64,000 nucleotides of DNA. Source: Verrucomicrobiota bacterium. GTDB taxonomy: Bacteria > Verrucomicrobiota > Verrucomicrobiia > Limisphaerales > JAHDYP01. The notes below the pieces were generated by a model. The model was not told the DNA's origin. It did no database searches and worked only from the letters and a program-made list of their open reading frames with translations. The DNA lies in the NCBI GenBank assembly GCA_046047235.1, contig JBJOII010000001.1:31720-95719 (forward strand), given 5' to 3'. The translations under genes were made by a program, and so were the position numbers. Below, piece after piece: positions 8,158 through 24,473 of the stretch (positions within the stretch are counted from its first letter, which is position 1; each line of letters opens with the position of its first letter).

Positions 8158-9765
8158 ATGCACGCCCGCCAGTCACGCATCCTCGCCGCGCTGCTCATCC
8201 TCGCCGCAAGCTACATCCAGCCCCGGGCAGCCACTCCCGCCAAGCCCAACGTGCTGTTGATTGTAGCCGACGACATGGGCTTCTCCGATCTGGGCTGCTA
8301 CGGCGGAGAGATCTCTACCCCGAACCTTGACGGACTTGCCGCCAACGGCCTGCGCTTTGCCCAGTTCTACAACACCGCCCGTTGCTGGCCCACCCGCGGC
8401 GCACTCATGACCGGCTACTACGCCCAGCAAATCCGGCGGGACACGGTTCCCGGAGTAAAGAGCGGCGGTGGTGGCACGCGCCCCGACTGGGCACCACTCC
8501 TGCCCGAACGCCTCCGCCCCCTCGGCTACCGCTCCTATCACTCAGGTAAATGGCACATCGACGGACCCCGTATGGCAGGCGGTTTCGACGCCTCCTACAG
8601 CGTCGAGGACCACGACCGCTTCTTCTATCCCAAACGACACCTGGCGAATGACAAGGACCTCCCTCCCATCGAACCCGGCTCAGGTTATTACTCCACCACC
8701 GCCATTGCCGACCACGCGATCCGCTGCCTGCAAGACCACGCCGAAAACCATGCTGACCAACCCTTCTTCCATTACCTCTGCTTCCTCTCACCCCACTTCC
8801 CACTCCACGCACCGCCGGAGGACATCAACCGCTACCTCCATCGCTACCAGGGAGGCTGGGACGTCCTCCGCCAGGAACGCTGGCAACGCATGCAGGACCT
8901 CGGACTCGTCAATCACCCGCTGCCTCCAATGGAAGCCGAGGTCGGCCCCCCCTACCATTTCCCGAAGGCCCTCGAACAACTCGGCCCCAACGAGGTCAAC
9001 CGCCCCCTCCCCTGGAACACCCTCACCCCCGATCAGCAGTCTTTCCAGGCAGCGAAAATGGCGGTGCACGCCGCCATGGTGGATCGCATGGACCAGGAAA
9101 TCGGCCGCGTCATCAGCCAGCTCAAGACCATGAACGCCCTCGACAATACGCTCATCCTCTTCCTGTCCGATAACGGGGCCAGCGCCGAAATCATGGTCCG
9201 CGGTGACGGCCACGACCAAAACGCGCCACCCGGATCACCCGCCTCCTTCCTGTGCCTCGGTCCCGGCTGGTCCAGTGCCGCCAATACCCCCCATCGTCGA
9301 CATAAAACCTGGGTCCACGAAGGCGGCATCTCCACCCCGCTCATCGCCCACTGGCCCCAAGGTATCCACCACCGCGGCCAATGGCGCGCAACCCCCACCC
9401 ACGTCATCGACATCGCCCCCACCATCGTCGAACTCGCCGGCGGTTCCTGGCCAGACGCATGGAACCACTCGAGCGCCCCCAAAACTCCCGGTCGCAGCCT
9501 CGCCCCAGTCCTCCAACACAACACCAACGCACTCCATGACTCCATCTGGTGGCTCCACGAAGGCCATCGCGCCATCCGCGCAGGTGACTGGAAAGCAGTT
9601 CGCGACGGTGATGACCAACCCTGGGAACTCTACAACCTCGCCAACGACCGGGGCGAATCCCTGAACCTCGCCGCCACCGAACCCGAACGCCTCCAAACAC
9701 TCGTCGCCCTCTGGGAAACCCAATGGGCCGCCATCCAGGAAAACGCCAAACCACCCGAAGAGTAG
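8158..9765 (+). CDS. Arylsulfatase (S1, formylglycine-dependent)
   Basis: Signal peptide; PNVLLIVADDMG, CWPTR (CxPxR), GKWH, SDNG, ELYNL. Confidence 0.93.
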   Translation: MHARQSRILAALLILAASYIQPRAATPAKPNVLLIVADDMGFSDLGCYGGEISTPNLDGLAANGLRFAQFYNTARCWPTRGALMTGYYAQQIRRDTVPGVKSGGGGTRPDWAPLLPERLRPLGYRSYHSGKWHIDGPRMAGGFDASYSVEDHDRFFYPKRHLANDKDLPPIEPGSGYYSTTAIADHAIRCLQDHAENHADQPFFHYLCFLSPHFPLHAPPEDINRYLHRYQGGWDVLRQERWQRMQDLGLVNHPLPPMEAEVGPPYHFPKALEQLGPNEVNRPLPWNTLTPDQQSFQAAKMAVHAAMVDRMDQEIGRVISQLKTMNALDNTLILFLSDNGASAEIMVRGDGHDQNAPPGSPASFLCLGPGWSSAANTPHRRHKTWVHEGGISTPLIAHWPQGIHHRGQWRATPTHVIDIAPTIVELAGGSWPDAWNHSSAPKTPGRSLAPVLQHNTNALHDSIWWLHEGHRAIRAGDWKAVRDGDDQPWELYNLANDRGESLNLAATEPERLQTLVALWETQWAAIQENAKPPEE

Positions 9766-10041
9766 TCCTGGCCGCAGCGCACCCCAACCCCTGTCCTTCG
9801 TAGCTCGAGGAGCGAAGGCGGGTGTGTCGTCCGCGAAACATTGGCCCCACCTCGCGCACTCTTCGGGATCGCTATCGCTATCGAAATCGAGATCGAACGC
9901 GACTTGGTCGCGAGTAGCCGGAAGAGCGCAGGGAGATGACAGTAACTACGCGCCGCCCAGCGACACCGCGCTCTCCGCTCCCACGGCCTCCCCTCTCCTC
10001 TCTCCTCTCTCCCTGCGGCCCGCCCTCGGGTCGCAAGAGCT

Positions 10042-10120
10042 CTCAGCTCTCAGCCCTCAGCTCTCAGCCCTCAGCTCTCAGCCCTCAGCCCTCAGCCCTC
10101 AGCTCTCAGCCCTCAGCCCT
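10042..10120 (+). repeat. Heptamer tandem array, 11 units of CTCAGC(C/T)
   Basis: Directly read; same family and orientation as 3642-3739. Confidence 0.95.
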
Positions 10121-10244
10121 ATCTCCCTCCTGCTCGGCGCAACCGCGCCGACTATCTGTCCCGAAACTCCACCCCCGTCCCGCGCCCAAAGTCTCGACAC
10201 CGCCTCTCGTCGATGGTCCACTCACACCTCGCATCCCTAACTGT

Positions 10245-11648
10245 ATGAACACGGCCCACACCCCCTCCTCCAACCCGTCCGCTTCAACCACCCGCCGCTC
10301 GTTCCTGAAGCGCATCGGACTTGCCAGCTCCGCCCTGTCCCTGCCCCAGTTCGCCAGCGCCGCTGCATTAGGTCGCGACGGCAACACGCCGCCAAGCGAA
10401 CGCATTCGCATGGGCTTCATCGGCCTCGGCGGACAGGGCACCGGCCACTTGCTCGGCGGCGCCTGGACCTACGTCCCCGGAGGTTATGTCGCCCGGCCCG
10501 ACGTGCAAGTGCTGGCAGTCTGCGACGTGCGCCGCGAACGCCGCGAAAGCGCCTGGACCCGCTGCAACCAGATGTACGCCCAGGCCCGCGGGGTCGCCAC
10601 TTACAACGGCGTCCAAGCCTACAACGACTTCCGCGAAGTGATCGGACGCGAGGACATCGATGCCGTCCTGCTCGCCCTCCCCTATCACTGGGCCGCCACC
10701 ATGGCCACCATGGCCATGCGCGCCGGCAAGGATGTCTACTGCGAAAAGCCCATCGCCACCACCATCCGCCAAGGCCTCAATCTCATCGAAACCGCCAACC
10801 GCTTCGGCCGCGTCTACCAAGCCGGCACCCAGCAACGCTCCGAATACGGCGGCAAATTCCGCCAAGCCTGCGAACTCGTCCGTAACGGCCGCATCGGCCA
10901 GCTCAAGGAAGTCTATGCCTACCGCCAGCCCGGCGCCTTCTTCCCCGCGTCGTGGACTTCCGGGGCCTCGGTGCCAGTACCCGCCGGCTTCGACTGGGAC
11001 ATGTGGCTGGGACCGCTCCCCTGGCGCCCGTTCGGCGGTGAAGCCGGCCATACGCTCTCAGGACTCTTCGTCGGCGACGTCAACTGGAGCCCGCACCACT
11101 ACGATATCATCCAGTGGACCGTCGACCCTGACCTCAGCAAAACCGTGGATATCGAATACGTTCCCGCCAACGCCGGCGCCGGCACCGGACAACACCCGGC
11201 CGGTGCTGCGGGACGCCCCGAGGATGGCCAGGTCCACTACCATTACTCCAACGGTGTCGTGATCCACTCGACCCCCTACCCCAACGAACCCGTCGGCGGT
11301 GAAGGCGGTGCCTGCTTCGTCGGTACTGAAGGCCGTATCGCCGTCGATCGCTCCAGCATCGTCTCCTACCCGGCAAACATCCTGACAACCCCTCTCAAGC
11401 CCGACGACGAGCGCGTCTACTACACCAATAGTCATTCAGGGAACTTCCTCGAGTGCATCCGGAGCCGGCGGCGCACGATCTGCGATGCGGAAACCGCGGT
11501 GAACACGATTAAAACAATCCTGACCGGCGGCATCGCCATGGCACTCCAACGCAGTGTTCGCTGGAACCCGGTGACCAGCACGTTTGAAGGGGATGAAGCC
11601 GCCAACCGGCTCCTCTCGTTCACACCCCGCCCGCCCTGGCGCCTCTGA
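10245..11648 (+). CDS. Tat-exported Gfo/Idh/MocA family oxidoreductase
   Basis: TRRSFLK Tat motif, GFIGLGGQG, KDVYCEKP, QAGTQQRS, DWDMWLGP. Confidence 0.92.
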   Translation: MNTAHTPSSNPSASTTRRSFLKRIGLASSALSLPQFASAAALGRDGNTPPSERIRMGFIGLGGQGTGHLLGGAWTYVPGGYVARPDVQVLAVCDVRRERRESAWTRCNQMYAQARGVATYNGVQAYNDFREVIGREDIDAVLLALPYHWAATMATMAMRAGKDVYCEKPIATTIRQGLNLIETANRFGRVYQAGTQQRSEYGGKFRQACELVRNGRIGQLKEVYAYRQPGAFFPASWTSGASVPVPAGFDWDMWLGPLPWRPFGGEAGHTLSGLFVGDVNWSPHHYDIIQWTVDPDLSKTVDIEYVPANAGAGTGQHPAGAAGRPEDGQVHYHYSNGVVIHSTPYPNEPVGGEGGACFVGTEGRIAVDRSSIVSYPANILTTPLKPDDERVYYTNSHSGNFLECIRSRRRTICDAETAVNTIKTILTGGIAMALQRSVRWNPVTSTFEGDEAANRLLSFTPRPPWRL

Positions 11649-11672
11649 TACCACCCGACCGCTGTAATCGAA

Positions 11673-14093
11673 ATGAGCCAAGCCAAACCAACCTCCATGA
11701 AACGCTCTCCCCTCACTCTCAGTCTCGTTACCTGCCTTGTCCTGCTGCTCCCGGCAGCCAGCCACGCCGCCACGGAAGCCGAACTGCTCTCCATCCTGCA
11801 GTCGTCCAACGACGCCGTGGCCCGCAGCTCCGCCTGCCAACAACTCCGCACGCTCGGATCACCCAAATCCATTCCCCTGCTCGGCGGCATGCTCGGAGTC
11901 GAGGGCGTCAGCCACGCCGCACGCTACGCCCTCGAAGGCATGCCCTATCCCGAGGCCGGCGCCATGCTGCGCGCCTCGCTCGCCCGCATATCCGGAACCA
12001 ACCAGGCCGGCATCATCGATTCCCTCGGCTGGCGCCGCGAACCCCAGGCCGTCCCCCTCCTCATGCCTCTCATCAAAAGTGACGATGTACTCGTCGCCAC
12101 CAGCGCAGCCACCGCCCTCGGCCGTATCGGCGGCACCGAGGCCACTGCCGTCCTCATGGGCGTAAGCACCGAAGCACCGCAGGCAGTCCAGCACGCCGCC
12201 TATGAAAGCCTGCTCCGCTGCGCCGAGAAAAACCTCCGCGAAAAAACTCCCGCTTCCGCCCTCGAAATCTACAAGCAACTCGCCGGACGCCCCGCCCCAG
12301 AACCCATGCGGGTTGCCGCCTGGCGAGGCTGGATGCTCACCAGCACTCCCCTCTCCAGTGAAATGACCCGGCTCATGGTCACCACGCTCTCCGATACCAG
12401 CCACTTCCGACACCAGATCGCCGTCAAGGTGCTGCGCGAAATCTATGATCCCGCTTTGCTCATGACCTGCCGCAACGCCTGGGAGACCTTGCCCGCAGAT
12501 GCCCAACTGGCCCTCCTCGACGCCATGCTCCTGGCCGGCCTTAACGTCGAGGACGCCATCCAGCAAGCCACCCAAAGCCCTCACGAAGCAGTGCGCATCG
12601 CTGGATGGGAATCCCTCGCTCTCCACCCCGATTCAAGCCGCCTCCAACCGCTGGCAGCCGCAGCCGCAGCAGGCGAACCCGCCGAACGCGAAGTAGCCCG
12701 CCGTATCCTCACAGTCGTCCGCGGCCCGAACATGACCACCCGCATTGCCGACGCCATCCCCGATGCCCCCGCACCCGTACAGGCCGCCCTGCTCCGCGCA
12801 CTCGGTGAACGCGGCGACCCCGCCGCCGCCCCAGTCCTGCTCAACATGGCCCGCACCGGCGAACGCCCAGTCCGCTACGCCGCCCTCGCCTCCCTCCAGA
12901 CTCTCGCACTCCCCGATACGCTCGAATCCCTCCTGACCATCACCGCCCAAGCCAAAGCAACCGGCGAACGCGATGCCGCACTCCAAGCCGTTTTCGCCGT
13001 GTGCCGCGCCGATGGCGACAAGGAACGCATCACCTCAGCCGTGCTCCAGGCGCTCACGGTGGGTGAAGACGCCGAAAGACTGCGCCTGCTCCCCATCCTG
13101 CCCGAACTCGGCACTCCCGGGGCACTGGCTGCCGCAACCGCTGCCACCACCTATCCCGATCCCGAAATCGCCAAGGAATCCCTGCGCGTGCTGGCCCGTT
13201 GGCCCAACAGCACCCCCGCCCCGGACTTGCTCGCTCTCGCCCGAACCACGGACGACCCCACCACCCACGCCCTCGCCCTGCGCGGCGCCATCGCAGTCGC
13301 AGCTCTCGATACCAACCCCCAACAGCGGCTTGCCTGGCTAACCCAGGCCCTGGAAACGGCCAAGCGCACCGAAGAGAAGAAACAAGCACTCGGCGCCATC
13401 GGCCAACAACCCACCGCTGCCGCTCTGGAAATCGTCATCCGCACACTCCAGGAACCCGAACTCGCCAACGAAGCCGCCCTCGCCGCCCTCGCCATCGCCG
13501 AAACACTGGCCCCCACAGAAAGCCAGCTCGCCAACGACGTCGCCGTCGAAGTCCTGCAGCATGCCGACGCACCCGAAGTATTCCGCCGCGCCTGGAAATT
13601 GCGTATCCGCCCCCAGACCGGCGGACCACGCCTCCGCCACTGGCAGCTCAACGGCCCCCACCGTCAGGACGGAGTCACCGGCGCCCAAGCAGTCTTCAAT
13701 CTCGAGTTCGGACCGGAAAAAGACCCCGCCACAACCCAATGGCAACGCCTGCCCGAAGGTGAACAAGTCAACCTCGCCGCACGATTCCCCGGCCAAGACA
13801 ACTGCATCGCCTACCTCCGAACCCAGGTCAAGGCACCGGAAGCCATGCCCGCCGCCATCCTCCTCGGCAGCGACGACGGCGCAAAAATCTGGGTCAACGG
13901 CACGGTCGTCCATAGCAATAACATCGACCGCGGAGAAGTCCCGGACGACGACGTCGCCCCCATCCAGCTCCAGAAAGGCCTCAACGAAATCATCGTCAAA
14001 GTCAGCCAGGGCGGCGGCGGATGGTCCATGAGTGCCCGTATCGTCAACACCGACGGCACCCCCGTGAACGGACTCACCGAAGTCGCACCCTAA
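11673..14093 (+). CDS. Exported HEAT/PBS-lyase repeat protein with C-terminal PA14-like beta-sandwich domain
   Basis: Signal peptide; repeated AATALGRIG/ALGERGD helical repeats; C-terminal GSDDGAKIWVNG...LQKGLNEIIVK. Confidence 0.82.
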   Translation: MSQAKPTSMKRSPLTLSLVTCLVLLLPAASHAATEAELLSILQSSNDAVARSSACQQLRTLGSPKSIPLLGGMLGVEGVSHAARYALEGMPYPEAGAMLRASLARISGTNQAGIIDSLGWRREPQAVPLLMPLIKSDDVLVATSAATALGRIGGTEATAVLMGVSTEAPQAVQHAAYESLLRCAEKNLREKTPASALEIYKQLAGRPAPEPMRVAAWRGWMLTSTPLSSEMTRLMVTTLSDTSHFRHQIAVKVLREIYDPALLMTCRNAWETLPADAQLALLDAMLLAGLNVEDAIQQATQSPHEAVRIAGWESLALHPDSSRLQPLAAAAAAGEPAEREVARRILTVVRGPNMTTRIADAIPDAPAPVQAALLRALGERGDPAAAPVLLNMARTGERPVRYAALASLQTLALPDTLESLLTITAQAKATGERDAALQAVFAVCRADGDKERITSAVLQALTVGEDAERLRLLPILPELGTPGALAAATAATTYPDPEIAKESLRVLARWPNSTPAPDLLALARTTDDPTTHALALRGAIAVAALDTNPQQRLAWLTQALETAKRTEEKKQALGAIGQQPTAAALEIVIRTLQEPELANEAALAALAIAETLAPTESQLANDVAVEVLQHADAPEVFRRAWKLRIRPQTGGPRLRHWQLNGPHRQDGVTGAQAVFNLEFGPEKDPATTQWQRLPEGEQVNLAARFPGQDNCIAYLRTQVKAPEAMPAAILLGSDDGAKIWVNGTVVHSNNIDRGEVPDDDVAPIQLQKGLNEIIVKVSQGGGGWSMSARIVNTDGTPVNGLTEVAP

Positions 14094-15556
14094 CCTCGCC
14101 AGGGACGCCACCCTCGGCGAATGCGACCCAGCACCGCAGGAATACGTTCTGGCGGAACAAACCGCACGCCGCCCCGTCGACGGTGCAACGCCAGCGCCAC
14201 GAAGTGAAACGGGGCGTCCGCAGGATCCACCGCGGCATTCCACCCATCCAATGCCTGATACGCAAGGTCATCGCCGGTGAGCGTGTAGCGCCCCAGTCGG
14301 CGAATGAGCTCAAACCGGACAGGTCCGCGCCCATGGAAGGAGCGATACACTAAGCCCGTGCACACCACACGCGTGCTCAGGGTAAAATCGAACTCGAAAT
14401 CATAGGGCAAACCAAAATGGCCCAGCGCCTCTCTCAAAGCGTCCTGCCTCGATTCGGGGGATACGTTCGGCCGCAGCACCAGCACATGGTCTGCCGCCAG
14501 ACATTGTTCGAGGGGGTTGATCTGCACCCTCGGCGCCAGTCCCTCCAACACATGCCCGAATCGCCCCCCAACCACCAGCCGCTCCCGCATGCCTTCCGAA
14601 AACTCCAGCCCCTCACGCTGCTCCTCCGTGCCAAGCGCAATCGCAGCATGCGCCCAGAAACCGGGCAATAACGCCGTCGTCACCTTCCCCTCCGTGCGCA
14701 CCAGCAGGATGTCCCCGGGACAAACCTGACCCCTGAGCTCCTCCAGCACCAGCTCGGTGATCCCCGGCTTGTAATCATACTTCAACCGCGCCTGCGCAAA
14801 GGTCTCCCCGATGATCGACTGCAGCCCATACGCCGCCTTCCGTGCAGGACGCAGCACCGTCTCACGAAACTCCCGCCAGTCATGTCGCAGACGCTGCCAC
14901 AACACATGCATCAGCCGGTTGCGGACTATCCGGCGCTGCCGCCGAACCAAACCCATCGCCCAGGCCAGCTGCGAATCCGCAGCAAAACCCAAACGGATCA
15001 TGCGACGTCGCCCCTTTCTCCAGTAACGATCCGCCTCACGCATCAAACGGTAATGGGACAGCGAGCTGTAACCGCGCAGGACATCATCAAAGAAGCCCGC
15101 TTCAATGTCCAAACGTGGCTCGGGCTCGTTGAGCTTCGACCTCAGCAACGGTGCATGTTCCACCAGCTGAATGACCCGCAACGACTTCGCGTAAAGCACC
15201 AGCGCCGCGACAAAGGCAACCAGGAAACTGCGGTAACGGCACGACTCCGTTTCTCGGCCGGCATAGTTGCTGTTCTCCAGAATCAGGTCATAAGCCACCA
15301 GACGGAGATTGCGATAACTCAGCAACATCTGCCGCACCTGCGACTCCTCATCGGGAGTCAGGTAACCACGCCGAATCGCCCCGGGAAGAATCATGCCCCG
15401 GTCCAACCGAACCTCCAACGCATCCAGGCCTTCCACCAGCTCTCGCAGCAACTCAAACCGATCGGGCCCACAACCAACATCCCCTGCCGGAGCAACCCCG
15501 CCGTGGTGTGACTCCACCTGCAACAGCGCTGCAGGACTATGTCGAAAATGCCGCAT
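14090..15556 (-). CDS. Permuted papain-like (YiiX/YebB NlpC/P60) hydrolase with long N-terminal helical extension
   Basis: PGDILL, PGFWAHAAI (His), PYDFEFD and VVCTGLVY (Cys) in permuted order. Confidence 0.78.
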   Translation of the reverse strand: MRHFRHSPAALLQVESHHGGVAPAGDVGCGPDRFELLRELVEGLDALEVRLDRGMILPGAIRRGYLTPDEESQVRQMLLSYRNLRLVAYDLILENSNYAGRETESCRYRSFLVAFVAALVLYAKSLRVIQLVEHAPLLRSKLNEPEPRLDIEAGFFDDVLRGYSSLSHYRLMREADRYWRKGRRRMIRLGFAADSQLAWAMGLVRRQRRIVRNRLMHVLWQRLRHDWREFRETVLRPARKAAYGLQSIIGETFAQARLKYDYKPGITELVLEELRGQVCPGDILLVRTEGKVTTALLPGFWAHAAIALGTEEQREGLEFSEGMRERLVVGGRFGHVLEGLAPRVQINPLEQCLAADHVLVLRPNVSPESRQDALREALGHFGLPYDFEFDFTLSTRVVCTGLVYRSFHGRGPVRFELIRRLGRYTLTGDDLAYQALDGWNAAVDPADAPFHFVALALHRRRGGVRFVPPERIPAVLGRIRRGWRPWRG

Positions 15557-15615
15557 CTATGACATTTTCCCTTACCAGAGTCTGACCCCACCGCAAACAG
15601 CGAAGTCAACCAACG

Positions 15616-15657
15616 GCGTACGGATTATTGGGACACCTGTCCCAATAATCCGTACGC
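15616..15657. repeat. Perfect 42-bp palindrome (20-bp arms, 2-nt spacer), family copy 1
   Basis: gcgtacggattattgggaca-cc-tgtcccaataatccgtacgc; related half-site gtacggatt near 15761. Confidence 0.95.
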
Positions 15658-15834
15658 TGCGCCGACCCGGACCAATGGCCCCAGTCTCACGGAGACAAGC
15701 TGTTGTGCAGATGAACAGCCACTGCCAGCTCTCACGATCCGGCTCATTCCTGACTTTGTCGTACGGATTGTGAGCCCAGGTGTCCCTTTTTTTCGTAGCG
15801 CTCAAGGACGCACGGCAGTGGCTACGGTCGGGAT

Positions 15835-18800
15835 TCAGGGTTGCGTGAGAACGCGATAGAAGAGTGCCGGCAGGCTGGGTTGGATGGGATTGGTGAGGAG
15901 GTCGTGGCCCGTGGTGTTGGTTCCTGAGAGGATGGGTGTCCAGTTTATGACGTCCTGGCCCAGGTTGGTGGTGTAGAGCAGTTCATAGGGTTGGAGCGGT
16001 TCACTGAGCAGCTGGAACACGAGATTGGTTTGGTTGATGAGCTCAGGTGAACTGAGTAGGATGTAGGTGCTCCCGGTAAAATGCGCGGTCACATGCAGGC
16101 TGCGCTGGACATCGAACACATACGGGTTGTTATCGGAACGGAGGTCTCCGCTCCAGCCGAGGAAGCCCGCATCTGCGTCGGGCACCGCCGTGAGGGTGAT
16201 GGCGGTGCCGTTGGTATAGAAGTTGGCGGCGGGCGCTTTCGAGACCGTACCGGATCCTTCCGTGAGCACGGTGACGGTGAAATAGCCATCGGGCAATGGG
16301 GAGAAGGAACCGACCACGACGGGTTCTGCGTCGTTCACGGTGAAGGTGACGGGGTTATTGGTACCGGTGGCTGTGCCGCTCCATTGGGAAAAGAAATGCC
16401 CCTGATCGGGGATGGCGAGCAGGCTGATCACCTCACCCCGGGCGTACAACGCGCCTGATGGCCGGAGTTGGAACGAGCCCTTGCCGTCGGCAGCAGTGGT
16501 GACTGTGGTCCCGAAGATCGGGGTGATCGTTTTATCCCGGTCCATGAGGACCGTTGCCACGGGGTTGGTATCGGTGAGATCGCCGGACCAGCGGGAGAAG
16601 AACCAGCCATCGTCGGGCTGGGCTGTGGCGGTTACGACGGTATTACTGACATAGACTCCGCCTGGCGGGGTGAGCGTGACGGATCCATCGGGGGCGGGTG
16701 GGACTGTGAGTTCGTGGGTGGTGAGGAGATGGATTACGACTGGTTCGGCGGCGGGGCTTTCGAGGCTGGAGGTAAAGGTCCTGGCGCGGAGCGTGACATT
16801 ACTTGAGACCAGCAGCGGTGCTGTGTAGAGGGGATCAGCGGGCGTGGGGTTGGTTTCACTGGTGGTGTAATGGATGGTGGCTTCGGGCATTCCTGCGGTC
16901 ATGGTGACCGTGACGGGGTTGATGTTGGTAAAGAAGAGGTTTGTGCCCTGCTGGTCGTTGACGGTGATGATGGGGGGGGAAAGGTGCATCTCGATGACAA
17001 CGGGGTCGGCTTCGGCAGACTCGAGTGTGGCGTCGTAGCCGATGGCACGCACTGTGGCGGGAGCGTTGACGGTGACCGTGCTGGCATAGGGGTGGGAGGC
17101 GAACGTGGGCTGGGAGCCATCGAGCGTGTAGTAGAGATCTGCGTCGGGGAAAGTTGCGATCAGTTCGAGTGAGACGTCGGGCAGATCGACGAAGCTGAAG
17201 TTGGTGCCGGCGGATCCATTGACGAGCACCTCCGGTGGGGTGACGCCATAGACCGTGAGCTGGACTGGCGGGCTGGTGGAATTACCGTAGGCGTTGCCTG
17301 AGACCAGCTGGTAGGAGCCAGAATCCAGAGCGGTGACTTCGGGGAGGAGGATTCCGGTGTTGGTTGCGTTGGTAATGGCGTTGGTTTTGTTGTGGTACCA
17401 CTGGTGGGTGATGGGTTCGGCGCCGCTGACGGTGAAGTTGAGTGACACGTCTGTGCCGGCGTTTGTGACGACGTTGGCGGGTTTATCGGTGATGAGCGGT
17501 GCAGGGGAAACCCGGGTGATGAGCAGGTCGAAGGCTTGGGCATTGGTGAGGGTGAAGGAGTCGAAGGTGGCATTGGTGGTGGCTCGACCGGCGAGAGTGA
17601 GGGCGGTGCCCGGGCCGGGCTGCAGGTTATAGGCGTAGTCCATGTTTGTGCCTCCGGCGGAGCGGGCCCATTGGACACCGCCGGTGGCGTTATGCTGCAG
17701 GATGAACCAATCGAAACCTCCGGCGCTGACGAGTTCGTTGGTGCCGAAGGTGCGGTTGCCCACGAAGAATCCGGCCACAGCTGCGCCGTTTTCCGGCAGG
17801 GCAGCGACGCTGGTGGCTTCCTGGCCGCCGTGATCGACCAGCCAGAGGGGTGTTCCATCGGGGGCGAACCTGGCGGAGAACGTGTAGCGGATGGCGGAAT
17901 TGGTGAGCACCAGGGATCCCAGTTCCGCGGGTCCGGCGAAGTAGCCGACCAGAGTCACTGCATTATCGGGATCCACGGCAACGGCTTGGGCGGCGTCGGC
18001 CTGGCTACTCCCCCCCGAGTGTGCCCAGAGGAAGCGGCCCGAGCCATCGGCCGCGGCGACGACGACCTGACTATTCAGGGCATTGGTGAGCTGGATATCA
18101 TCGAAGTCCACATCGCCGGCAACGCTACCGGAGAGGATCAGGTTACCGTTGGGGCTAAGCGCGAGGGCGGATGCGAGATCGACGGAGGCGCCTCCCGCTT
18201 GGGTCGCCCATTCAACGCCCCCTTCCGGCGTCAGCGAGGTCAGGTAGATATCGCTATTGCCGTAGCTGGTCAGGGTGGTGTCGCCCCATTGTGCGGTGTT
18301 CATGAAGGAACCGGTGGCGTAGATCCGTCCGGACGAGTCGACAGCGATACCCTTGAGCGTGTCGTAGATATTCGCTCCAAACTGGGTCATCCAGAGCAGG
18401 TTGCCGTCGGGGTCGAGTTTGGCGAGGAAGGCATCGGCGGTGCCGACGGGGCCGCGATTGGTGAGTGTGACCTGGCTGCAGGTGAGGTCCCGGATGAACT
18501 GGCCACCGGCGATCGTGTTGCCGTTGGGGTCGATGGCGATGGCATCGACCTTGACTGCTCCGGGGCTGGCAAACGTCTGGACCCACAGTGGCTGGCTGTT
18601 GGACGGGGTGTAGTGGGCGACGAAGCCGTCTGTATCACCGGCGGAGGTCAACTGGGTGGTTCCGAAGTGGATGGTTTCCTCGAAGGCGCCGCCGACATGC
18701 AGTCCGCCATTGGCATCGATGGCGAGGCATCTGGCTTCGTCGTCACCGCTACCGGTGGCGGTGAGCAGGTTATGGAAGTTGTAACCCGTGGGGTGTCCCG

Positions 18801-18888
18801 CTGCATGGGGTCTCGGGGTGAGGAGCAGGGCGAGCAGGAGCGGGAGGTATTGGAGGGTGGACGGAGGAATTTTGGTAGCGGGAGCCAC
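15835..18888 (-). CDS. Large surface protein: beta-propeller repeats, Ig domain, two Fn3-associated/CHB_HEX_C-like domains, three InlB-B-like repeats, C-terminal FYRV domain
   Basis: Signal peptide; AIAVD..G repeats; QWYHN...DSGSYQL Ig motif; YYTLDGSQP; FxxWSGD repeats; terminal ALFYRV. Confidence 0.8.
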   Translation of the reverse strand: MAPATKIPPSTLQYLPLLLALLLTPRPHAAGHPTGYNFHNLLTATGSGDDEARCLAIDANGGLHVGGAFEETIHFGTTQLTSAGDTDGFVAHYTPSNSQPLWVQTFASPGAVKVDAIAIDPNGNTIAGGQFIRDLTCSQVTLTNRGPVGTADAFLAKLDPDGNLLWMTQFGANIYDTLKGIAVDSSGRIYATGSFMNTAQWGDTTLTSYGNSDIYLTSLTPEGGVEWATQAGGASVDLASALALSPNGNLILSGSVAGDVDFDDIQLTNALNSQVVVAAADGSGRFLWAHSGGSSQADAAQAVAVDPDNAVTLVGYFAGPAELGSLVLTNSAIRYTFSARFAPDGTPLWLVDHGGQEATSVAALPENGAAVAGFFVGNRTFGTNELVSAGGFDWFILQHNATGGVQWARSAGGTNMDYAYNLQPGPGTALTLAGRATTNATFDSFTLTNAQAFDLLITRVSPAPLITDKPANVVTNAGTDVSLNFTVSGAEPITHQWYHNKTNAITNATNTGILLPEVTALDSGSYQLVSGNAYGNSTSPPVQLTVYGVTPPEVLVNGSAGTNFSFVDLPDVSLELIATFPDADLYYTLDGSQPTFASHPYASTVTVNAPATVRAIGYDATLESAEADPVVIEMHLSPPIITVNDQQGTNLFFTNINPVTVTMTAGMPEATIHYTTSETNPTPADPLYTAPLLVSSNVTLRARTFTSSLESPAAEPVVIHLLTTHELTVPPAPDGSVTLTPPGGVYVSNTVVTATAQPDDGWFFSRWSGDLTDTNPVATVLMDRDKTITPIFGTTVTTAADGKGSFQLRPSGALYARGEVISLLAIPDQGHFFSQWSGTATGTNNPVTFTVNDAEPVVVGSFSPLPDGYFTVTVLTEGSGTVSKAPAANFYTNGTAITLTAVPDADAGFLGWSGDLRSDNNPYVFDVQRSLHVTAHFTGSTYILLSSPELINQTNLVFQLLSEPLQPYELLYTTNLGQDVINWTPILSGTNTTGHDLLTNPIQPSLPALFYRVLTQP

Positions 18889-19003
18889 AGTGGCCGGACT
18901 TTATCCGGCTTTGGGGGTATTCGCAAGGTGGTCGGGTGGCGGTGCTGGGCACGAAAAGGAGTGCTTCAATATTGACCATGGGGTGCAGTAGTTTCCGGGT
19001 TGG

Positions 19004-20656
19004 ATGCGCGAAGCGGCGATTGAGATTGTGCGGCGTTTGCAGGGGGCTGGTTATGAGGCCTACTGGGTGGGGGGGGGCGTACGGGACATGCTGCGGGGCG
19101 TGGAGCCGAAGGACTACGACATTGCCACCTCGGCGCATCCGGGTGAGGTGGAGCGATTGTTTAGGCGCACCGTTCCGGTGGGGCGGGCCTTTGGGGTGGT
19201 GCTGGTGTTGAGCGGGGGGCATCCATTTGAGGTCGCGACCTTCAGGAGTGAGTCGGACTATCGGGATGGGAGGCGTCCTGAGCGGGTGGAATTCAGCAGT
19301 GCGCGCGAGGATGCGAGCCGGCGGGATTTCACTGTGAACGGTTTATTTTTCGATCCGGTCCGGGGGCGGTTGATGGACTGGGTGGGTGGGGAGCGGGATT
19401 TGGCGGAGGGGATTTTAAGGACAATTGGTTCTGCGGCGGAGCGGTTTGCGGAGGATCATTTGCGGTTGCTACGCGCCGTGCGGTTTGCGGTGCAGCTGGA
19501 CTTTAAGATTGAGCCTGAAACTTGGGGAGCGGTGTGTGCTGCGGCGGGGATGATTCGGGGTATTTCAGCGGAGCGGGTGCGGGACGAGTTGCTCAAGATC
19601 CTGCGGCCTCCGCATGCGGCGCGGGGTTTCCAACTGCTTCAGGAGAGCGGGTTATTGGCTGAGGTTTTGCCTGAGTTGGAGGCCACCGTGGGCTGCGAGC
19701 AGTCGCCCGATTTTCATCCGGAGGGGAGCGTCTTCAAGCACATCAGCAAGATGCTGGGGATGCTTCCTTTGGAATCGGGTCCGGAGCTGGTGTGGGCGGT
19801 ATTATTGCATGATGTGGCGAAGCCGGTCACGGCGGTGAAGGAGCCCGGGGAGGGGCGGATTCGCTTTCCTGAGCACGAGCGGGTGGGGGCACAGATGGCA
19901 GCGGGAATCCTGGAAAGACTGCGTTTTCCGCGGAAGTTCATGGATGCCGTGATTGAGTGTGTGCGGTTTCACATGCAATTTCTGGACGCGCCGGCCATGC
20001 GGCGGTCGACCCTGAGGCGGATGTTGATGCGGCCTCATTTTCCTTTGGAGCTGGAGTTGCACCGGCTGGACAGTTTGGGGTCGAACGGACGGATGGAGAC
20101 CTATGACTTTGTGCGGCGGGAGCAGGAGTCCTTTGCGGCGCAGCCGGAGTTGGTGCCGCCGTTGCTTGGGGGTCGGGATCTGATGGCGCTGGGTGTGTTG
20201 CCTGGTCGGGGGATGGGGGAGATGCTGGGGGAGTTGCGTGAACTTCAGCTGCAGGGCGAACTGGGCAACAAGCTTGAGGCGGAGGCGTGGATACGCAAAA
20301 AACTGGCGAAAACCGCAAAATCCTGCTGGCGTTCTGGCGCAGAATGCCCTAGACGCAGTGTTCAACATATGCCCAAAGCACTTACCAAATCCCAGATTGC
20401 GGCAGCAATTGCCGAGAAAGTTGAAATCACCAAGAAGCAGGCGGTGGCCGTGCTGGATACCATCACCGAGCTGGCCTACAAGAATGCCAAGAACTCCTTC
20501 ACTGTTCCCGGACTCGGGAAGCTCGTGCTTGTGAAGCGCAAGGCTCGCACTGGCCGCAACCCCGCGACTGGCGAGACCATCAAGATTCCGGCCAAGAAGG
20601 TCGTGAAGTTCCGCGTTGCCAAGGCGGCTAAGGACGCGATCCTCGGCGGCAAGTAA
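19004..20656 (+). CDS. cca: CCA tRNA nucleotidyltransferase with HD domain; ORF continues in frame through HU
   Basis: VGGGVRD, KDYDIAT, RRDFTVN, EDHLRLLRAVRF, ERVRDEL, LLHDVAK; no stop before the HU ATG at 20369. Confidence 0.88.
   Translation: MREAAIEIVRRLQGAGYEAYWVGGGVRDMLRGVEPKDYDIATSAHPGEVERLFRRTVPVGRAFGVVLVLSGGHPFEVATFRSESDYRDGRRPERVEFSSAREDASRRDFTVNGLFFDPVRGRLMDWVGGERDLAEGILRTIGSAAERFAEDHLRLLRAVRFAVQLDFKIEPETWGAVCAAAGMIRGISAERVRDELLKILRPPHAARGFQLLQESGLLAEVLPELEATVGCEQSPDFHPEGSVFKHISKMLGMLPLESGPELVWAVLLHDVAKPVTAVKEPGEGRIRFPEHERVGAQMAAGILERLRFPRKFMDAVIECVRFHMQFLDAPAMRRSTLRRMLMRPHFPLELELHRLDSLGSNGRMETYDFVRREQESFAAQPELVPPLLGGRDLMALGVLPGRGMGEMLGELRELQLQGELGNKLEAEAWIRKKLAKTAKSCWRSGAECPRRSVQHMPKALTKSQIAAAIAEKVEITKKQAVAVLDTITELAYKNAKNSFTVPGLGKLVLVKRKARTGRNPATGETIKIPAKKVVKFRVAKAAKDAILGGK
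20369..20656 (+). CDS. hup: HU family DNA-binding protein
   Basis: LTKSQI...PGLGKL...RKARTGRNPATGETIKIPAKKVVKF; C-ending codon usage distinct from the surrounding cca. Confidence 0.93.
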   Translation: MPKALTKSQIAAAIAEKVEITKKQAVAVLDTITELAYKNAKNSFTVPGLGKLVLVKRKARTGRNPATGETIKIPAKKVVKFRVAKAAKDAILGGK

Positions 20657-20674
20657 TTCATTACTTTTGCAGCA

Positions 20675-20706
20675 AGAGCAGGGACCTTTCGGTCCCTGCT
20701 TTTTTT
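20675..20706 (+). terminator. Rho-independent terminator after HU
   Basis: agcagggacc-tttc-ggtccctgct followed by a T run. Confidence 0.9.
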
Positions 20707-20788
20707 GTATTTCTGTCTGCCGTTTCAGGGCGAACGCGTGGGTGGATATCTCAGGTTGGAACGGGCGACATGGGGGGCGTGAGGAGAG

Positions 20789-20864
20789 TGGTGGGCCCAG
20801 AGGGATTTGAACCCCCGACCAAACGATTATGAGTCGTCTGCTCTAACCGCTGAGCTATGGGCCC
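20789..20864 (-). tRNA. tRNA with CAT anticodon, most likely tRNA-Ile2 (lysidine-modified); CCA encoded
   Basis: Reverse complement GGGCCCATAGCTCAGCGGTTAGAGCAGACGACTCATAATCGTTTGGTCGGGGGTTCAAATCCCTCTGGGCCCACCA; 76-nt cloverleaf resembling the ileX type, lacks the initiator GGG/CCC anticodon stem. Confidence 0.92.
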
Positions 20865-20932
20865 GGAAGAGGTGGGCCATGCTGGGAAACTGCGCTGCGC
20901 TGGGCAAGGAGAATTGGTGTCCAAATACGACT

Positions 20933-20964
20933 TGCTCCGCGGAACGAGTGGATTCCGCGGAGCA
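20933..20964. terminator. 12-bp stem hairpin downstream of hcp (possible terminator)
   Basis: tgctccgcggaa-N8-ttccgcggagca; weak U-tract. Confidence 0.45.
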
Positions 20965-20991
20965 GTGTGGGAGCAGACTGTGGAGGGATAA

Positions 20992-22674
20992 TTAGACTTC
21001 GACCATTTCCGTTTTGGTTTTGGAACCACCGTTACCGAGGCAGGCGTTGAGGTCGGCATCGACTTCGCCTACTGGCATGAGGTTGAATTTTTCGACCAGC
21101 ACATCGAGCACGGCGGGTGTGATGAAGGCGGGGAGTGTGGGCCCGAGCCGGATATTCCGGATACCGAGGTGCAGGAGGGTGAGCAGGATCGCGACTGCCT
21201 TTTGTTCGAACCAGGACAGGATCATGGAGAGCGGCAGGTCATTGACCCCGCATTTGAAGGCTTCGGCGAGGGCGCCGGCGATCTTGATGGCCGAGTAGGC
21301 ATCGTTGCATTGGCCCAGGTCAAGCAGGCGAGGAATACCGCCGATCGTGCCGAACTCCATTTTATTGAAGCGGAACTTGCCGCAAGCGAGCGTGAGAATC
21401 ACGCAGTCCTGGGGGACCTTTTCGGCGAACTCGGTGTAGTAGTCACGTCCGGTGCGGGCGCCGTCGCAACCTCCGATGAGGAAGAAGCGTTTGATGTCAC
21501 CGTTTTTGACGCCGTTGATGACCTGGTCGGCCACACTGAGCACGGTGTTGTGGCCGAACCCGGTGAGGATGGTTTTATCGGGGCCATCCTCGGTGAAGCC
21601 GGGGGCGGCGAGGGCGGCTTCGATGAGCGGGGTGAAGTCGCGATTTTTGATATGTTGGACACCGGGCCAGGCGACCATACCTGCGGTGAAGATACGGTCG
21701 GAGTAGGAAGTCTGCGGTTCGATGATGCAGTTGGTGGTCATGAGGATTGCGCCGGGGAATTTGGCGAACTCGATCTTCTGATCCTGCCACGCGCCGCCAT
21801 AGTTACCGACGAGGTGCTTGTATTTCTTGAGGTTGGGATAGCCATGGGCGGGGAGCATTTCACCGTGGGTATAGATGTTGATGCCCTTGCCTTCGGTTTG
21901 CTTTAGCAGTTCCTCGAGGTCCTTGAGGTCGTGACCGGAGACCACGATGGCTTTGCCCTTCAGGGGTTCCGTGCGGACGGGTGTTGGGACCGGGTGGCCG
22001 TAGGTTTGGGTATGCGCGGCATCGAGCATCTCCATGACCTGTAGATTAACGGCGCCGCAGGCCATGCTTAGGTTGAACAATCCATCCACGCTTGCTTCCG
22101 TCTCGGCCATGTAAGCCAAAGCCTCCGTAAAGTGGTCGTATACGGAATCAGCTTCACTACCGAGAATCAAAGCATGGTCAGCGTAGGCTGCGGCGCCTTT
22201 GATTCCATAAAGCAAGAGGTCCTGGAGTCCGGTGATATCGGGGCCGAGTTTTTCGCGGCGTTGGAGGACGGACACGGTGCGGCCCTGTTGAAGGAGGCCA
22301 TCGAAGGAGCCGGCGGGTTCCCAGGTGCAGGGGCCGAGGGGGGTTTCGGGAACTTGTCCGGCAGCGGTGGTCGCACCGGTATACAGGTCACGGGCCTTGT
22401 CGCGGATGCCGGCGGCTTCCTGGAGCATTCCAGCGATGCGTTCGGCATCGAAGTTGACGTTGGTGACCGTGGTGAAGAGAGCTTCGAGGATGAACCGGTC
22501 GATGGTGCGGTCCCGTGCGCCGATTTGATGGGCGCGGTGGTTGAATTGCGCGATGCCTTTACAGGCATGGACGAGGAGGTCCTGGAGCACGGCGCTATTC
22601 TCGTCCTTGCCGCAGGTGGCAAACTCGGTGCAGCCCATTCCCCGGGAGGTTTGTTCACATTGATAACAAAACAT
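20992..22674 (-). CDS. hcp: Hybrid cluster protein (hydroxylamine reductase)
   Basis: MFCYQCEQT...C...CGK N-terminus, SGHDL, THGEMLPAHGYP, GGCDG, DLGQCNDAY, SWFEQKA. Confidence 0.97.
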   Translation of the reverse strand: MFCYQCEQTSRGMGCTEFATCGKDENSAVLQDLLVHACKGIAQFNHRAHQIGARDRTIDRFILEALFTTVTNVNFDAERIAGMLQEAAGIRDKARDLYTGATTAAGQVPETPLGPCTWEPAGSFDGLLQQGRTVSVLQRREKLGPDITGLQDLLLYGIKGAAAYADHALILGSEADSVYDHFTEALAYMAETEASVDGLFNLSMACGAVNLQVMEMLDAAHTQTYGHPVPTPVRTEPLKGKAIVVSGHDLKDLEELLKQTEGKGINIYTHGEMLPAHGYPNLKKYKHLVGNYGGAWQDQKIEFAKFPGAILMTTNCIIEPQTSYSDRIFTAGMVAWPGVQHIKNRDFTPLIEAALAAPGFTEDGPDKTILTGFGHNTVLSVADQVINGVKNGDIKRFFLIGGCDGARTGRDYYTEFAEKVPQDCVILTLACGKFRFNKMEFGTIGGIPRLLDLGQCNDAYSAIKIAGALAEAFKCGVNDLPLSMILSWFEQKAVAILLTLLHLGIRNIRLGPTLPAFITPAVLDVLVEKFNLMPVGEVDADLNACLGNGGSKTKTEMVEV

Positions 22675-22783
22675 AGAGTCTTTCTTTCTCGTTCAGATCG
22701 CGAAGCCGACCGCGCCACTCGACTTGGTTGACGTCGCTTTTGTTTGCACGGGAGAACTAAAGCAGAACGGGGAAGTCCTCGAT

Positions 22784-22797
22784 TTGACCTTTGTCAA
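22784..22797. promoter_or_regulatory. Candidate CRP/FNR-family (FNR/DNR/HcpR-like) binding box upstream of hcp
   Basis: TTGAC-CTTT-GTCAA perfect 5-4-5 palindrome resembling TTGAT-N4-ATCAA, about 110 bp before the hcp start. Confidence 0.7.
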
Positions 22798-22932
22798 TTC
22801 GAGGAGAGGAATAAGACAATCCGATCGATACGATCAGGACAGCTGGAAATGCGGAGAGAGGGGCGACGAGCCGGTTCCCTACCCGAGCAAGGCGGGTGCG
22901 AGGAATTGGCGGACGAGACGCCGCGCAGGATG

Positions 22933-22958
22933 CCGCAGGCAGCGGTCGCTGCCTGCGG
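22933..22958. repeat. Perfect 12-bp-arm hairpin in intergenic region
   Basis: ccgcaggcagcg-gt-cgctgcctgcgg. Confidence 0.7.
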
Positions 22959-23048
22959 TGGTTTATTGAGCAGCCTTACTTGGGCGTGGGTCCGCCCGGA
23001 GGCGCATTGAACCCCTTCTCGTCTATTCCGGGACAGTCGGCTGTGAGG

Positions 23049-24350
23049 CTAGAGTTTCCAGCCTTTGCGGTAGCGGTGTTGCACGAACTCAGCGGCCTGT
23101 TTGCAGTTGCGCGCCTGCATTTTGGCGCTATCCCAGTCGATGGCGCAGCCGGTGCGATAGGCGACGTTACCGAGCAGGGCGGCTTCCGTGAGCGGGCCGG
23201 AATAATCGAATGCGCAGGTTGTAGGTTGGCCGGTTTTACAGGCCAGGATCCATTCTGCGTGGTGGCCGATTGAATCGGCGATGAAGGGCGTGGGACGTTG
23301 GAAGTCCTTGTATTGCTCTTCGGGCAGGAGGACGTGGCGGCTGTAGTCGGAGATCAGCTGGCCCTTTTCGCCGATGAACAGAACTCCGCTGTTCCAGGTG
23401 AAGTCGGTTTGGCCTTCCAACAGGTCGTCTGGCTTTTTGCCGCCGTGGTACCAGGTCAATTTCACAGGCGGTTTCTCGCCTCGGGCGGGATAACCGTAGC
23501 GCACGATGAGCCAGGGCGGGGTGGAGTCGGGATGCACGGCGGGGCCGTCCACCACCTCGGCACTGAGCGGATGGCGCAGGTCCAGAGCCCAGTGGGGGAG
23601 GTCCATGAAGTGGCAGCCGAAGTCGGCGAGAGAGCCGCCGCCGAAGGCCCACCAGTTCCGCCATTTGAACGGCACCCATTCCGGGCTGTAGGGTCGGTAT
23701 TCCACGGGGCCGAGCCAGAGGTCGTAGTGGAGATGGGCGGGGACGGGGGGATATTCTGTGGGGAGATCCATGCCGCCGTAGGTGGCTCCGACCCAGACAT
23801 GCACTTCACGGACGGCGCCGATGGCGCCGGACTGGACGAGCTCGACGACGCGGCGGTAGTTGGAGCCGGCATGGATTTGGGTACCGATCTGGGTAACGCG
23901 TTTGTAGCGCCGGGCGGTTTCCGTGACGGCCCGGACTTCAGAGATGGTGTGGGCGAGGGGCTTTTCGCAATAGACGTGGCGACCGCTTTCGAGCGCCCAT
24001 TTGGAGGCGACGGCGTGCACGTGGTCGGGGGTAGCGACGACTACCGCATCGAGGTCGGGCTGTTCCAGCAGGCGGCGGAAGTCATTGTAGCGTTTGGCTT
24101 GCGGGAACCTCTCACCTGCGGCGGCGAGGTAGTTGTCATCGATATCGCAGAGGGCGGCGATGTTTTCCGTGGCCACGTTGGTGAGGTTGAAGTTGCCTTG
24201 GTTGGCGACGCCGACGATACCGATATTGAGCTTATCGTTGGCGGAGAGCCTTCGTCCTTGGGGGACTGTGCTGCAGGAGACCCAGGCCATGGAGCCGGCG
24301 ACGGCGGAAGCCTGTTTCAGGAACGAGCGACGATTTAGGAGCATAGACAT
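23049..24350 (-). CDS. Tat-exported Gfo/Idh/MocA family oxidoreductase
   Basis: NRRSFLK Tat motif, VATPDHVH, HVYCEKPL, TQIGTQ, YDLWLGP, DFGCHFMD. Confidence 0.93.
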   Translation of the reverse strand: MSMLLNRRSFLKQASAVAGSMAWVSCSTVPQGRRLSANDKLNIGIVGVANQGNFNLTNVATENIAALCDIDDNYLAAAGERFPQAKRYNDFRRLLEQPDLDAVVVATPDHVHAVASKWALESGRHVYCEKPLAHTISEVRAVTETARRYKRVTQIGTQIHAGSNYRRVVELVQSGAIGAVREVHVWVGATYGGMDLPTEYPPVPAHLHYDLWLGPVEYRPYSPEWVPFKWRNWWAFGGGSLADFGCHFMDLPHWALDLRHPLSAEVVDGPAVHPDSTPPWLIVRYGYPARGEKPPVKLTWYHGGKKPDDLLEGQTDFTWNSGVLFIGEKGQLISDYSRHVLLPEEQYKDFQRPTPFIADSIGHHAEWILACKTGQPTTCAFDYSGPLTEAALLGNVAYRTGCAIDWDSAKMQARNCKQAAEFVQHRYRKGWKL

Positions 24351-24473
24351 AACGGTGTTAGCGCTGGTGTTGTTGGACCTAGTGAACGGGGGCATTCGAC
24401 TGCAAGTGCGCAGGAATGTCGAGGACTGAGCTTGCGGACTGGTCAAAGCGACCGGGTTGGCGTAGGAACGGGC

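Follow-up and report, generated by a model that had tools for sequence, protein, structure and literature searches.

In bacteria, strand skew is the standard read-out of replication direction, and switches are expected at a single origin and a single terminus only, barring rearrangement. The multi-origin chromosomes of Sulfolobus and Haloferax have origins with inverted origin recognition box (ORB) repeats, and the skew N-domains of mammals, a subject of Touchon, Huvet, Arneodo and colleagues, reportedly show sharp jumps at initiation sites, and between these the skew declines gradually. The rolling-circle and strand-displacement origins of HUH Rep proteins use a hairpin or a cruciform as the initiation signal. 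Here we report on a 64,000-nucleotide stretch of a Verrucomicrobiota draft genome (hereafter the window; G000:C1:31720-95719), in which the strand skew flips from C-rich to G-rich near 15.6 kb, in an intergenic gap holding a perfect palindrome of a dispersed family that we call pal1. Over the whole genome, pal1 is associated with upward skew jumps of origin-like polarity. With somewhat more confidence than doubt, we favour the explanation that pal1 clusters are local bidirectional start sites of outward DNA synthesis.

The 15.6-kb site resembles a bacterial origin of replication (oriC) in the sharp switch of the top strand from C-rich to G-rich, the opposite switch of AT skew and the intergenic position. 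It differs from oriC in that pal1 is a 38-bp hairpin-forming palindrome present in 40 copies, that the genome has 15 sharp up-steps and that the effect is gone within 10-30 kb; moreover, contig C1 contributes none of the 12 densest 500-nt windows for DnaA boxes, and no origin-linked genes lie nearby. Like the N-domains and the archaeal origins, pal1 shows sharp up-jumps, gradual declines and paired dyad-symmetric repeats. Unlike the N-domains, it belongs to a bacterium, its domains measure 10-30 kb rather than hundreds of kilobases, and its jumps stand atop a two-replichore skew. We know of no Orc/Cdc6-type initiator in bacteria. With regard to the HUH Rep origins, outward displacement of the 5'-to-3' strand would likewise yield the observed polarity, whereas the pal1 sites are chromosomal, dispersed and symmetric on both strands, with no adjoining Rep gene. 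The dif/Xer system has a single 28-bp site at the downward switch, whereas pal1 is multi-copy, 38 bp long and upward only. The parS site is a 16-bp TGTTNCACGTGAAACA palindrome, of which pal1 has only the CACGTG centre, and even this is variable among copies. The orientation of IS200/IS605 elements at forks and the cleavage of palindromes by SbcCD are further comparisons. In searches of the literature on repetitive extragenic palindromes (REPs) and RAYT proteins, on bacterial GC skew and on multiple origins, none of the papers listed reports, in its title or abstract opening, dispersed palindromes at bacterial skew jumps.

The preliminary description of this DNA held that the plus strand is C-rich from about 2 to 15.5 kb and G-rich from about 15.8 kb whatever the gene strand, that synonymous codon endings follow the DNA strand and not the gene, that the switch lies in the gap with the perfect 42-bp palindrome, and that the skew fades over about 33-44 kb, restarts and turns C-rich at about 60.3-62.1 kb. 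All four statements agree with our measurements. The GC skew in 1-kb windows is -0.20 to -0.31 at 2-15 kb and +0.13 to +0.33 at 16-32 kb; it is near 0 (-0.05 to +0.12) at 34-44 kb, rises to +0.26 at 44-45 kb, fades past 52 kb and reaches -0.16 at 60-62 kb. The skew at third codon positions (GC3 skew) of the window genes likewise tracks the DNA strand, with the same sign on both gene strands. The maximum-likelihood change-point is at 15752, where the skew goes from -0.24 to +0.23 (delta logL 271), and its 2-log-likelihood support, 15691-15830, lies within the palindrome gap. A second likelihood change-point at 44314 (support 44203-44349) falls on pal1 copy 3 and takes the skew from 0.02 to 0.21. 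The features concerned are the following.

2000-15557, both strands coding: C-rich domain, GC skew about -0.25, GC3 skew -0.39 to -0.58
15616-15657 (the 38-nt core is 15618-15655, C1:47337-47374): pal1 copy 1, a perfect 42-bp palindrome
15752 (best), support 15691-15830: first skew change-point, -0.24 to +0.23
15758-15800: decayed second pal1 copy at the 15.6-kb site, 63% identity to copy 1
15835-33000, both strands coding: G-rich domain, GC skew +0.13 to +0.33, GC3 skew +0.31 to +0.55, about 0 by 34 kb
42895-42932 (C1:74614): pal1 copy 2, outer arms conserved, inner stem imperfect, -8.4 kcal/mol
44255-44300 (44259-44296 within): pal1 copy 3, a 46-nt near-perfect palindrome, -20.5 kcal/mol, z = -8.4
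44314 (best), support 44203-44349: second skew change-point, 0.02 to 0.21
44300-52000: second G-rich domain, GC skew +0.15 to +0.26, about 0.05 by 53-59 kb, -0.16 at 60-62 kb

The whole draft (G000) consists of 5,137,072 bases in 261 contigs and is about 90% complete with 4% estimated contamination; its gene set is our own, called from open reading frames (ORFs; 3,487 genes, 85% of the genome). The skew of this genome is bimodal, with modes near -0.4 and +0.35 (500-nt bins, n=10,145). Read on the plus strand, minus-strand genes have a GC3 skew of -0.55 in C-rich segments (1,090 genes) and +0.60 in G-rich segments (444 genes), and plus-strand genes one of -0.63 (930 genes) and +0.53 (509 genes), respectively; the effect of gene direction on total skew is small, about 0.03-0.05. 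AT skew runs opposite to GC skew (r = -0.94, 896 5-kb windows), and a G+T-rich strand is the usual leading-strand signature. The ribosomal-protein and rpoB genes, which we sought in order to verify that the G-rich strand is the leading one, are not in the draft, and 16S is on a short contig. Thus, the check on the leading strand has to use the overall gene-strand bias, which is weakly towards the G-rich strand (1,599 of the 2,973 genes in skewed segments). A second species of the same genus (G001) has the same strong skew as G000. On the other hand, twenty 20-kb samples from ten other genomes of the family or order mostly have |skew| < 0.1, near 0.05, with one stretch of G004 at -0.35. Thus, the extreme asymmetry (GC skew about 0.4, GC3 skew about 0.6), several-fold stronger than in the relatives, is recent and limited to the genus among the genomes sampled. 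As a side observation, the G+T / C+A strand asymmetry of the genome resembles unrepaired cytosine deamination.

The pal1 family has a 38-nt core, GTACGGATTAT-N16-ATAATCCGTAC. Copy 1 has 20-nt arms (15616-15635 and 15638-15657) that are fully complementary across a 2-nt spacer; its fold as single-stranded DNA has an energy of -23.7 kcal/mol (z = -10.2), which none of 200 shuffles equalled. The gap around it is 278 nt long and has minus-strand genes on both sides; the neighbours are a C92 peptidase-like gene and a gene for an Ig-repeat surface protein. The decayed copy lies 142 nt from copy 1 and has no stable fold (z = +0.75), its left arm being recognisable and its right arm replaced by a T-run. 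Copies 2 and 3 flank a purM-like gene (AIRS domains). The genome holds 40 copies with at most 3 substitutions, 39 of them outside gene calls. No flank conservation was seen past about 2 nt on either side of pal1, and the inner stem varies with compensation (GGGACA/TGTCCC, GGCACA/TGTGCC, TCCGCA/TGCGGA). Like REPs and bacterial interspersed mosaic elements (BIMEs), pal1 is short, extragenic and multi-copy, its stem is kept by compensating changes, and the genome has five Y1_Tnp proteins. It differs from them in being a full palindrome with a self-complementary GTAC foot in both arms (not GTAG or CGTC), in flanking no Y1 gene, in keeping its position between species at about 85% DNA identity, and in its tie to skew jumps. 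A search of Rfam gave no family at gathering score for pal1, the sole hit being a hairpin at 30 bits against 83.

To quantify the jumps, we took the skew step of a site as its right-flank minus its left-flank skew over 3-kb flanks, a measure independent of contig orientation. Across pal1 the mean step is +0.19 (n=36); 89% of the steps are positive, 39% exceed 0.2, and none of the 36 is below -0.1. Intergenic control steps have a mean of 0.011 (sd 0.10, n=1,348), and permutation with 20,000 resamplings gave p < 5e-5. Sharp steps, defined as |change| > 0.3 with 3-kb arms, were called genome-wide without reference to the motif and number 15 up and 5 down. There are pal1 half-sites within about 150 nt at 7 of the 15 sharp up-steps and at 0 of the 5 sharp down-steps; the binomial probability of at least 7 in 15, counting intergenic DNA only, is 1e-9. 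The preliminary description had proposed such a comparison of genome-wide change-points with the motif against intergenic controls, and it upholds the association. Four of the sharp up-steps at pal1 are full sign flips, one at the window site and the others on C8, C85 and C102.

The polarity of the pal1 steps is origin-like and unaffected by contig orientation. AT skew steps in the opposite sense at pal1 (-0.089, p = 2e-7). Since AT and GC skew are anticorrelated genome-wide and both step at pal1, it is the genome's own strand asymmetry that flips there. Hairpins in general were considered as a cause and ruled out, because 171 other perfect hairpins with arms of at least 11 nt have a step of 0.010 (n=121), which equals the background. 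The effect is specific to the pal1 family. In G001, the pal1 steps have a mean of +0.17, 12 of 14 are positive and none is -0.1 or lower.

A simple explanation of the 15.6-kb switch alone would be that it is the single chromosomal oriC, which we consider very unlikely. The site is a sharp sign change of origin polarity in an intergenic gap, and dnaA lies elsewhere (on C15, in a uniform +0.3 domain), so that oriC need not adjoin dnaA. However, a single origin does not fit with 15 sharp up-steps, four of which are full sign flips at pal1, and dnaA, dnaN, gidA and parAB are not among the neighbouring genes. The scaffold of C1 and C12 (about 180 kb, joined by synteny with G001) carries 8 of the 40 pal1 copies, and its two outer ends are C-rich (-0.43 and -0.3 to -0.4); thus the G-rich domains of the window are reversed islands inside one replichore. 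Moreover, when DnaA boxes were scanned as TTATCCACA with at most 1 mismatch, no C1 window was among the 12 densest 500-nt windows of the genome. A better candidate is found on C8 (6392-7338), where the thyA/gidA gap has a modest up-step from -0.19 to +0.16, one of the six sharp up-steps with neither pal1 nor a Y1 gene, and a perfect parS-like palindrome, TGTTCCACGTGGAACA, lies inside gidA (C8:7323). It is plausible that this gap is the true oriC. A much stronger flip lies 42 kb from it, at the pal1 cluster C8:49103.

Inversion was another explanation to be weighed: recombination between palindrome copies may have flipped blocks of 10-30 kb. The palindrome is its own reverse complement, and its copies could recombine either way; domains of 10-30 kb would be a plausible size. 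But inversion expects paired up- and down-steps at the repeats, and pal1 is seen at 7 of 15 up-steps and 0 of 5 down-steps with no pal1 step below -0.1. The far ends of the domains are gradual, and 20 pal1-bearing regions of G001, at loci other than the 15.6-kb site, are collinear with G000 across the palindromes. The codon positions also point the other way. In perturbed domains, positions 1+2 nearly track position 3, leaving a residual of +0.031 (p = 0.015; +0.11 for the window's domain), where about +0.13 is expected if positions 1+2 have not moved and a relaxing inversion would give a negative residual. The perturbed domains look like a long-standing steady state and not like a relaxing rearrangement, though the codon-position memory of older skew is weak and this is modest evidence on age. 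On this evidence we hold inversion to be highly improbable.

We find it hardly credible that the junctions are an assembly or binning artefact, in which the palindrome caused chimeric joins of opposite-strand contigs. It is true that the draft has 261 contigs and 4% estimated contamination, and that at the 15.6-kb locus both G001 contigs end (at window positions 15543 and 20803, with 15544-20802, which encodes the surface protein and the CCA enzyme, not found at the DNA level in G001). However, the G001 contig ends facing the site carry the same opposite skews as G000, and with chimeric joins one would expect down-steps and up-steps in equal number. Common assembly word sizes exceed the 38 bp of the repeat, and the flanks of pal1 are not conserved. 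Furthermore, G001 is an independent assembly with the same junctions: each of its 29 copies with flanks of 150 nt has a positional orthologue in G000.

Two more candidates were rejected. Horizontally acquired islands were dismissed because the genes of the low-skew stretches are housekeeping ones (G6PD, MscK-like, purM-like, dnaE and secA) and their ends fade gradually. Resection of a break at the palindrome, by reasoning, would leave the 3'-ended strand single after 5'-to-3' resection and give a downward step, opposite to what is seen.

The oriented profiles show a sharp jump and then a return to the surrounding level over 10-30 kb. At C1:18163, for example, the skew jumps from -0.5 to 0 and has returned to -0.29 at 18-20 kb, and C22:12377, C2:39951 and C33:24416 behave alike. 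Comparing neighbouring 2-kb windows over the whole genome gives 13 rises above 0.3 and 0 such falls, while the 2-kb differences have a skewness of 0.53 and 53% of them are negative, that is, small falls (p = 0.003). Large rises only, together with many small falls, make the skew profile a sawtooth. At unselected pal1 loci, the left flank changes by +0.062 between the 0-4 kb and the 12-16 kb intervals (15 of 20 loci, p = 0.017) and the right flank relaxes by -0.047 (14 of 19 loci, p = 0.03), with control means near 0. The domains of 10-20 kb named in the preliminary description were thus about right in scale but too narrow in range, which we see as 10-30 kb.

The step is also dose-dependent. 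With a relaxed motif, which has 97 copies against 18 for a backwards control, the mean step is 0.284 at sites with at least 2 copies within 1.5 kb (n=12) vs 0.035 at single copies (n=50; p = 3e-4). To the clustered kind belong the window's 15.6-kb site, with its perfect and decayed copies, and the full flips on C8, C85 and C102. Divergent gaps have the largest pal1 step, 0.31 (n=9; background 0.034), followed by tandem gaps with 0.14 (n=14; background 0.004) and convergent gaps with 0.06 (n=9; background -0.014). An artefact of gene orientation is ruled out, since these backgrounds are far smaller and gene strand accounts for no more than about 0.03-0.05 of the total skew. Two genes transcribed away from each other leave negative supercoils in the gap between them, and these would favour cruciform extrusion or melting.

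Among the 401 genomes of the order, multi-copy pal1 was found only in G000 (34 copies with at most 2 mismatches) and G001 (27), and the order-wide scan gave a match in 4 genomes in all, G033 and G184 having one pal1-like copy each. A scan of public metagenome contigs for the pal1 motif gave no match. The positional orthology of the copies in the two species means that they are old and fixed in place. Between G000 and G001 the palindromes are 94.7% identical vs 83-86% in the flanks, and several pairs show matched changes in both arms, for example GTACAG...CTGTAC vs GTACGG...CCGTAC. Such two-arm changes point to selection that maintains base pairing, or to one arm being corrected against the other within the hairpin. 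pal1 is a structured, selectively maintained palindrome, genus-specific in its multi-copy form. The two single pal1-like palindromes (G033:C2:13979-14016 and G184:C74:22291-22328) are from two other families of the order. They have the outer arms of pal1, but their inner stem differs and is self-complementary; one is flanked by purH and a gene for a DEAD-box helicase, and the other is upstream of tyrS. They may represent the ancestral single-copy form.

This distribution bears on the possibility that pal1 is a transcription-factor operator, with a PaaX-like regulator as the candidate factor, or a REP-like RNA hairpin, in either case unrelated to strand asymmetry. A PaaX-like gene (C1:18295-19077, 260 aa, PaaX_M domain) stands between two pal1 copies (C1:18163-19118), an arrangement kept in G001; its homologue in G028 has a different 28-bp palindrome just upstream, and the single pal1-like copies of the two other families are in the promoter regions of purH and tyrS. 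On the other hand, pal1 occurs in all gap types (12 convergent, 10 divergent and 18 tandem among the 40 copies, similar to intergenic gaps generally), and no shared function is apparent among the genes adjoining the copies, which speaks against an operator, regulon or terminator as the chief role of pal1. The off-consensus compensating changes in the two arms fit base pairing and not protein half-sites. Most importantly, an operator leaves the skew steps unexplained, and we judge it rather improbable. What it may contribute is the name of a pal1-binding protein, the PaaX-like regulator being a candidate.

Starting from the association, polarity, shape, dose dependence and conservation observed here, the start-site explanation can be put as follows. 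Clusters of pal1 (at least 2 copies within about 1.5 kb), notably those between divergent genes, would start a strand-asymmetric outward process. To the right of the site, the top strand would be exposed longer as the displaced, lagging-template strand, and would lose C and gain G+T; to the left, the bottom strand would be exposed likewise. Outward DNA synthesis of any kind would result in the polarity observed. The synthesis would stop at variable distances, on meeting the main fork or through limited processivity, and its effect would then fade over 10-30 kb, giving a sawtooth superposed on the ordinary two-replichore skew. The window's 15.6-kb site would be among the strongest of these sites, lying inside a C-rich replichore and reversing its skew locally, and would not be oriC. 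Two versions may be considered: (a) extra theta-type replication initiation, in which the counter-directional fork soon meets the main fork, and (b) strand displacement from a nick made by a hairpin-specific Y1 (HUH) nuclease. Both versions would give the same polarity. The preliminary description had left the palindromes as either inversion breakpoints or sites of initiation or loading. The former is contradicted by the missing down-steps and the collinearity, and the latter is favoured by polarity, symmetric decay, dose, divergence and the conservation of sequence, dyad symmetry and position.

Five Y1_Tnp genes are present in the genome, and all of them have an up-step at the 5' end, for example from 0.01 to 0.51 and from 0.04 to 0.43; two of the sharp up-steps (C2:39950 and C33:24400) fall at the 5' ends of such genes. 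All five are encoded on the natively C-rich (lagging) strand, and each is divergent with respect to its upstream neighbour. Three are long paralogues of 329-346 aa, in which the Y1_Tnp core has an insertion and a long C-terminal extension, and upstream of these three there is a GGGACAG motif that resembles the pal1 core. The long proteins have more than 6,900 homologues, named only 'transposase' or 'RayT'. They are similar to the TnpA-Y1 subclasses without REPs, which are described as having large extra domains and an unknown role (PMC6006769), in having an insertion and a long tail and in standing outside the REPtron. They differ in that each gene here is at an origin-polarity jump, on the lagging strand. 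In addition, a second REP family (GTAGGTTGC CGTGGTCSGACCACG, 44 copies) flanks a RAYT-like gene on C10 and has a step of +0.085 (n=28), weaker than that of pal1; in the window this family occurs at 8079-8107 and 62336-62364. The link of Y1 to pal1 is circumstantial, coming from the five Y1 genes at up-steps, the GGGACAG motif and the weaker step at the RAYT-associated REP family.

Taking these elements together, one might suppose that the genus copies or partly re-copies its chromosome from dozens of palindrome-defined sites besides oriC, with cruciforms opened by divergent transcription, a domesticated Y1 (HUH) nuclease nicking or binding them and an unusually strong cytosine-deamination bias recording each site as a 10-30 kb sawtooth. 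This detailed picture is tentative, and we would not expect it to hold as a whole.

The main rival is hitch-hiking, which would make pal1 a follower: other, unrecognised elements would make the jumps, and hairpins of the pal1/Y1 type would insert or persist there, for example via single-stranded DNA. It agrees with the 6 of 15 sharp up-steps that have neither pal1 nor a Y1 gene, with the perfect pal1 copies that lack any step, and with the known targeting of single-stranded DNA at forks by Y1 transposases (PMC6006769). However, the change-points lie within about 100 nt of the palindromes, the step scales with pal1 copy number, and other hairpins have no step. Unlike mobile scars, the copies are positionally stable and under purifying or compensating selection in two species. 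We regard hitch-hiking as unlikely.

Several points weigh against the start-site explanation itself. That synthesis would start at pal1, and which protein would act there, are inferences. Several perfect pal1 copies without a step stand inside strongly skewed domains (C49, C33, C29, C37, C7 and C4:79352), and therefore pal1 alone is insufficient. No conserved unwinding element lies beside pal1, and the result of the DnaA-box scan on C1 that counts against oriC counts here too. Domains of 10-30 kb are short for ordinary forks and need explanation, since they require firing near the main fork or low processivity. None of the five Y1 genes is flanked by pal1. The larger steps in divergent gaps could have the reverse cause, as outward local replication may instead select outward-facing genes. 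G000 and G001 are kin, so that the G001 result replicates the assembly and not the evolution. Finally, the gene calls are home-made, and the genome, 90% complete, is still in 261 contigs, among which the true oriC is unplaced.

Many sharp origin-polarity switches are here anchored on a conserved palindrome family and on Y1 nuclease genes. If these sites start DNA synthesis, the rule of one origin per bacterial chromosome would have an exception, a cellular role could be proposed for REP-like palindromes and 'orphan' Y1 nucleases, and the genome would be a natural recorder of the long-term activity of each site. If the many-site picture is true, no earlier case would exist of a natural bacterial chromosome whose internal initiation sites are many and defined by sequence, and a large class of REP-less Y1 proteins would have a function. 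Even under hitch-hiking, the tight link between a hairpin element and skew boundaries is new.

Some other features of the window and the two genomes may be mentioned. A 7-nt unit (CCCTCAG / CTCTCAG, the double unit measuring about 14 nt) is repeated in arrays at 3596-3769 and 9989-10148, one of them intergenic and the other at the start of a GFO/IDH/MocA-like gene, and they match many short G001 contigs. At 19004-20656 (plus strand), one ORF combines the head of a CCA-adding/poly(A) polymerase, an HD domain and a C-terminal HU-type DNA-binding domain. The best relatives of the CCA-adding enzyme gene are from metagenome-assembled genomes of Verrucomicrobiota (52-60% identity), and the HU part (residues 455-550) matches separately in other Verrucomicrobiota at 76-84% identity. 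This ORF may be a fusion, or two genes read through. A tRNA-Met gene is at 20789-20864 (minus strand), inside which the matching G001 contig ends, and a gene of the uracil-DNA glycosylase superfamily is at 32151-33092 (plus strand). G001 regions bridge the ends of several G000 contigs (C1-C12, C33-C36, C45-C85, C21-C84, C79-C18 and C8-C64). The identity of blocks between the two genomes ranges from about 78% to 98%, with C21/C84 at 97-98% and C102 at 95%, and this variation suggests recent exchange of some segments.

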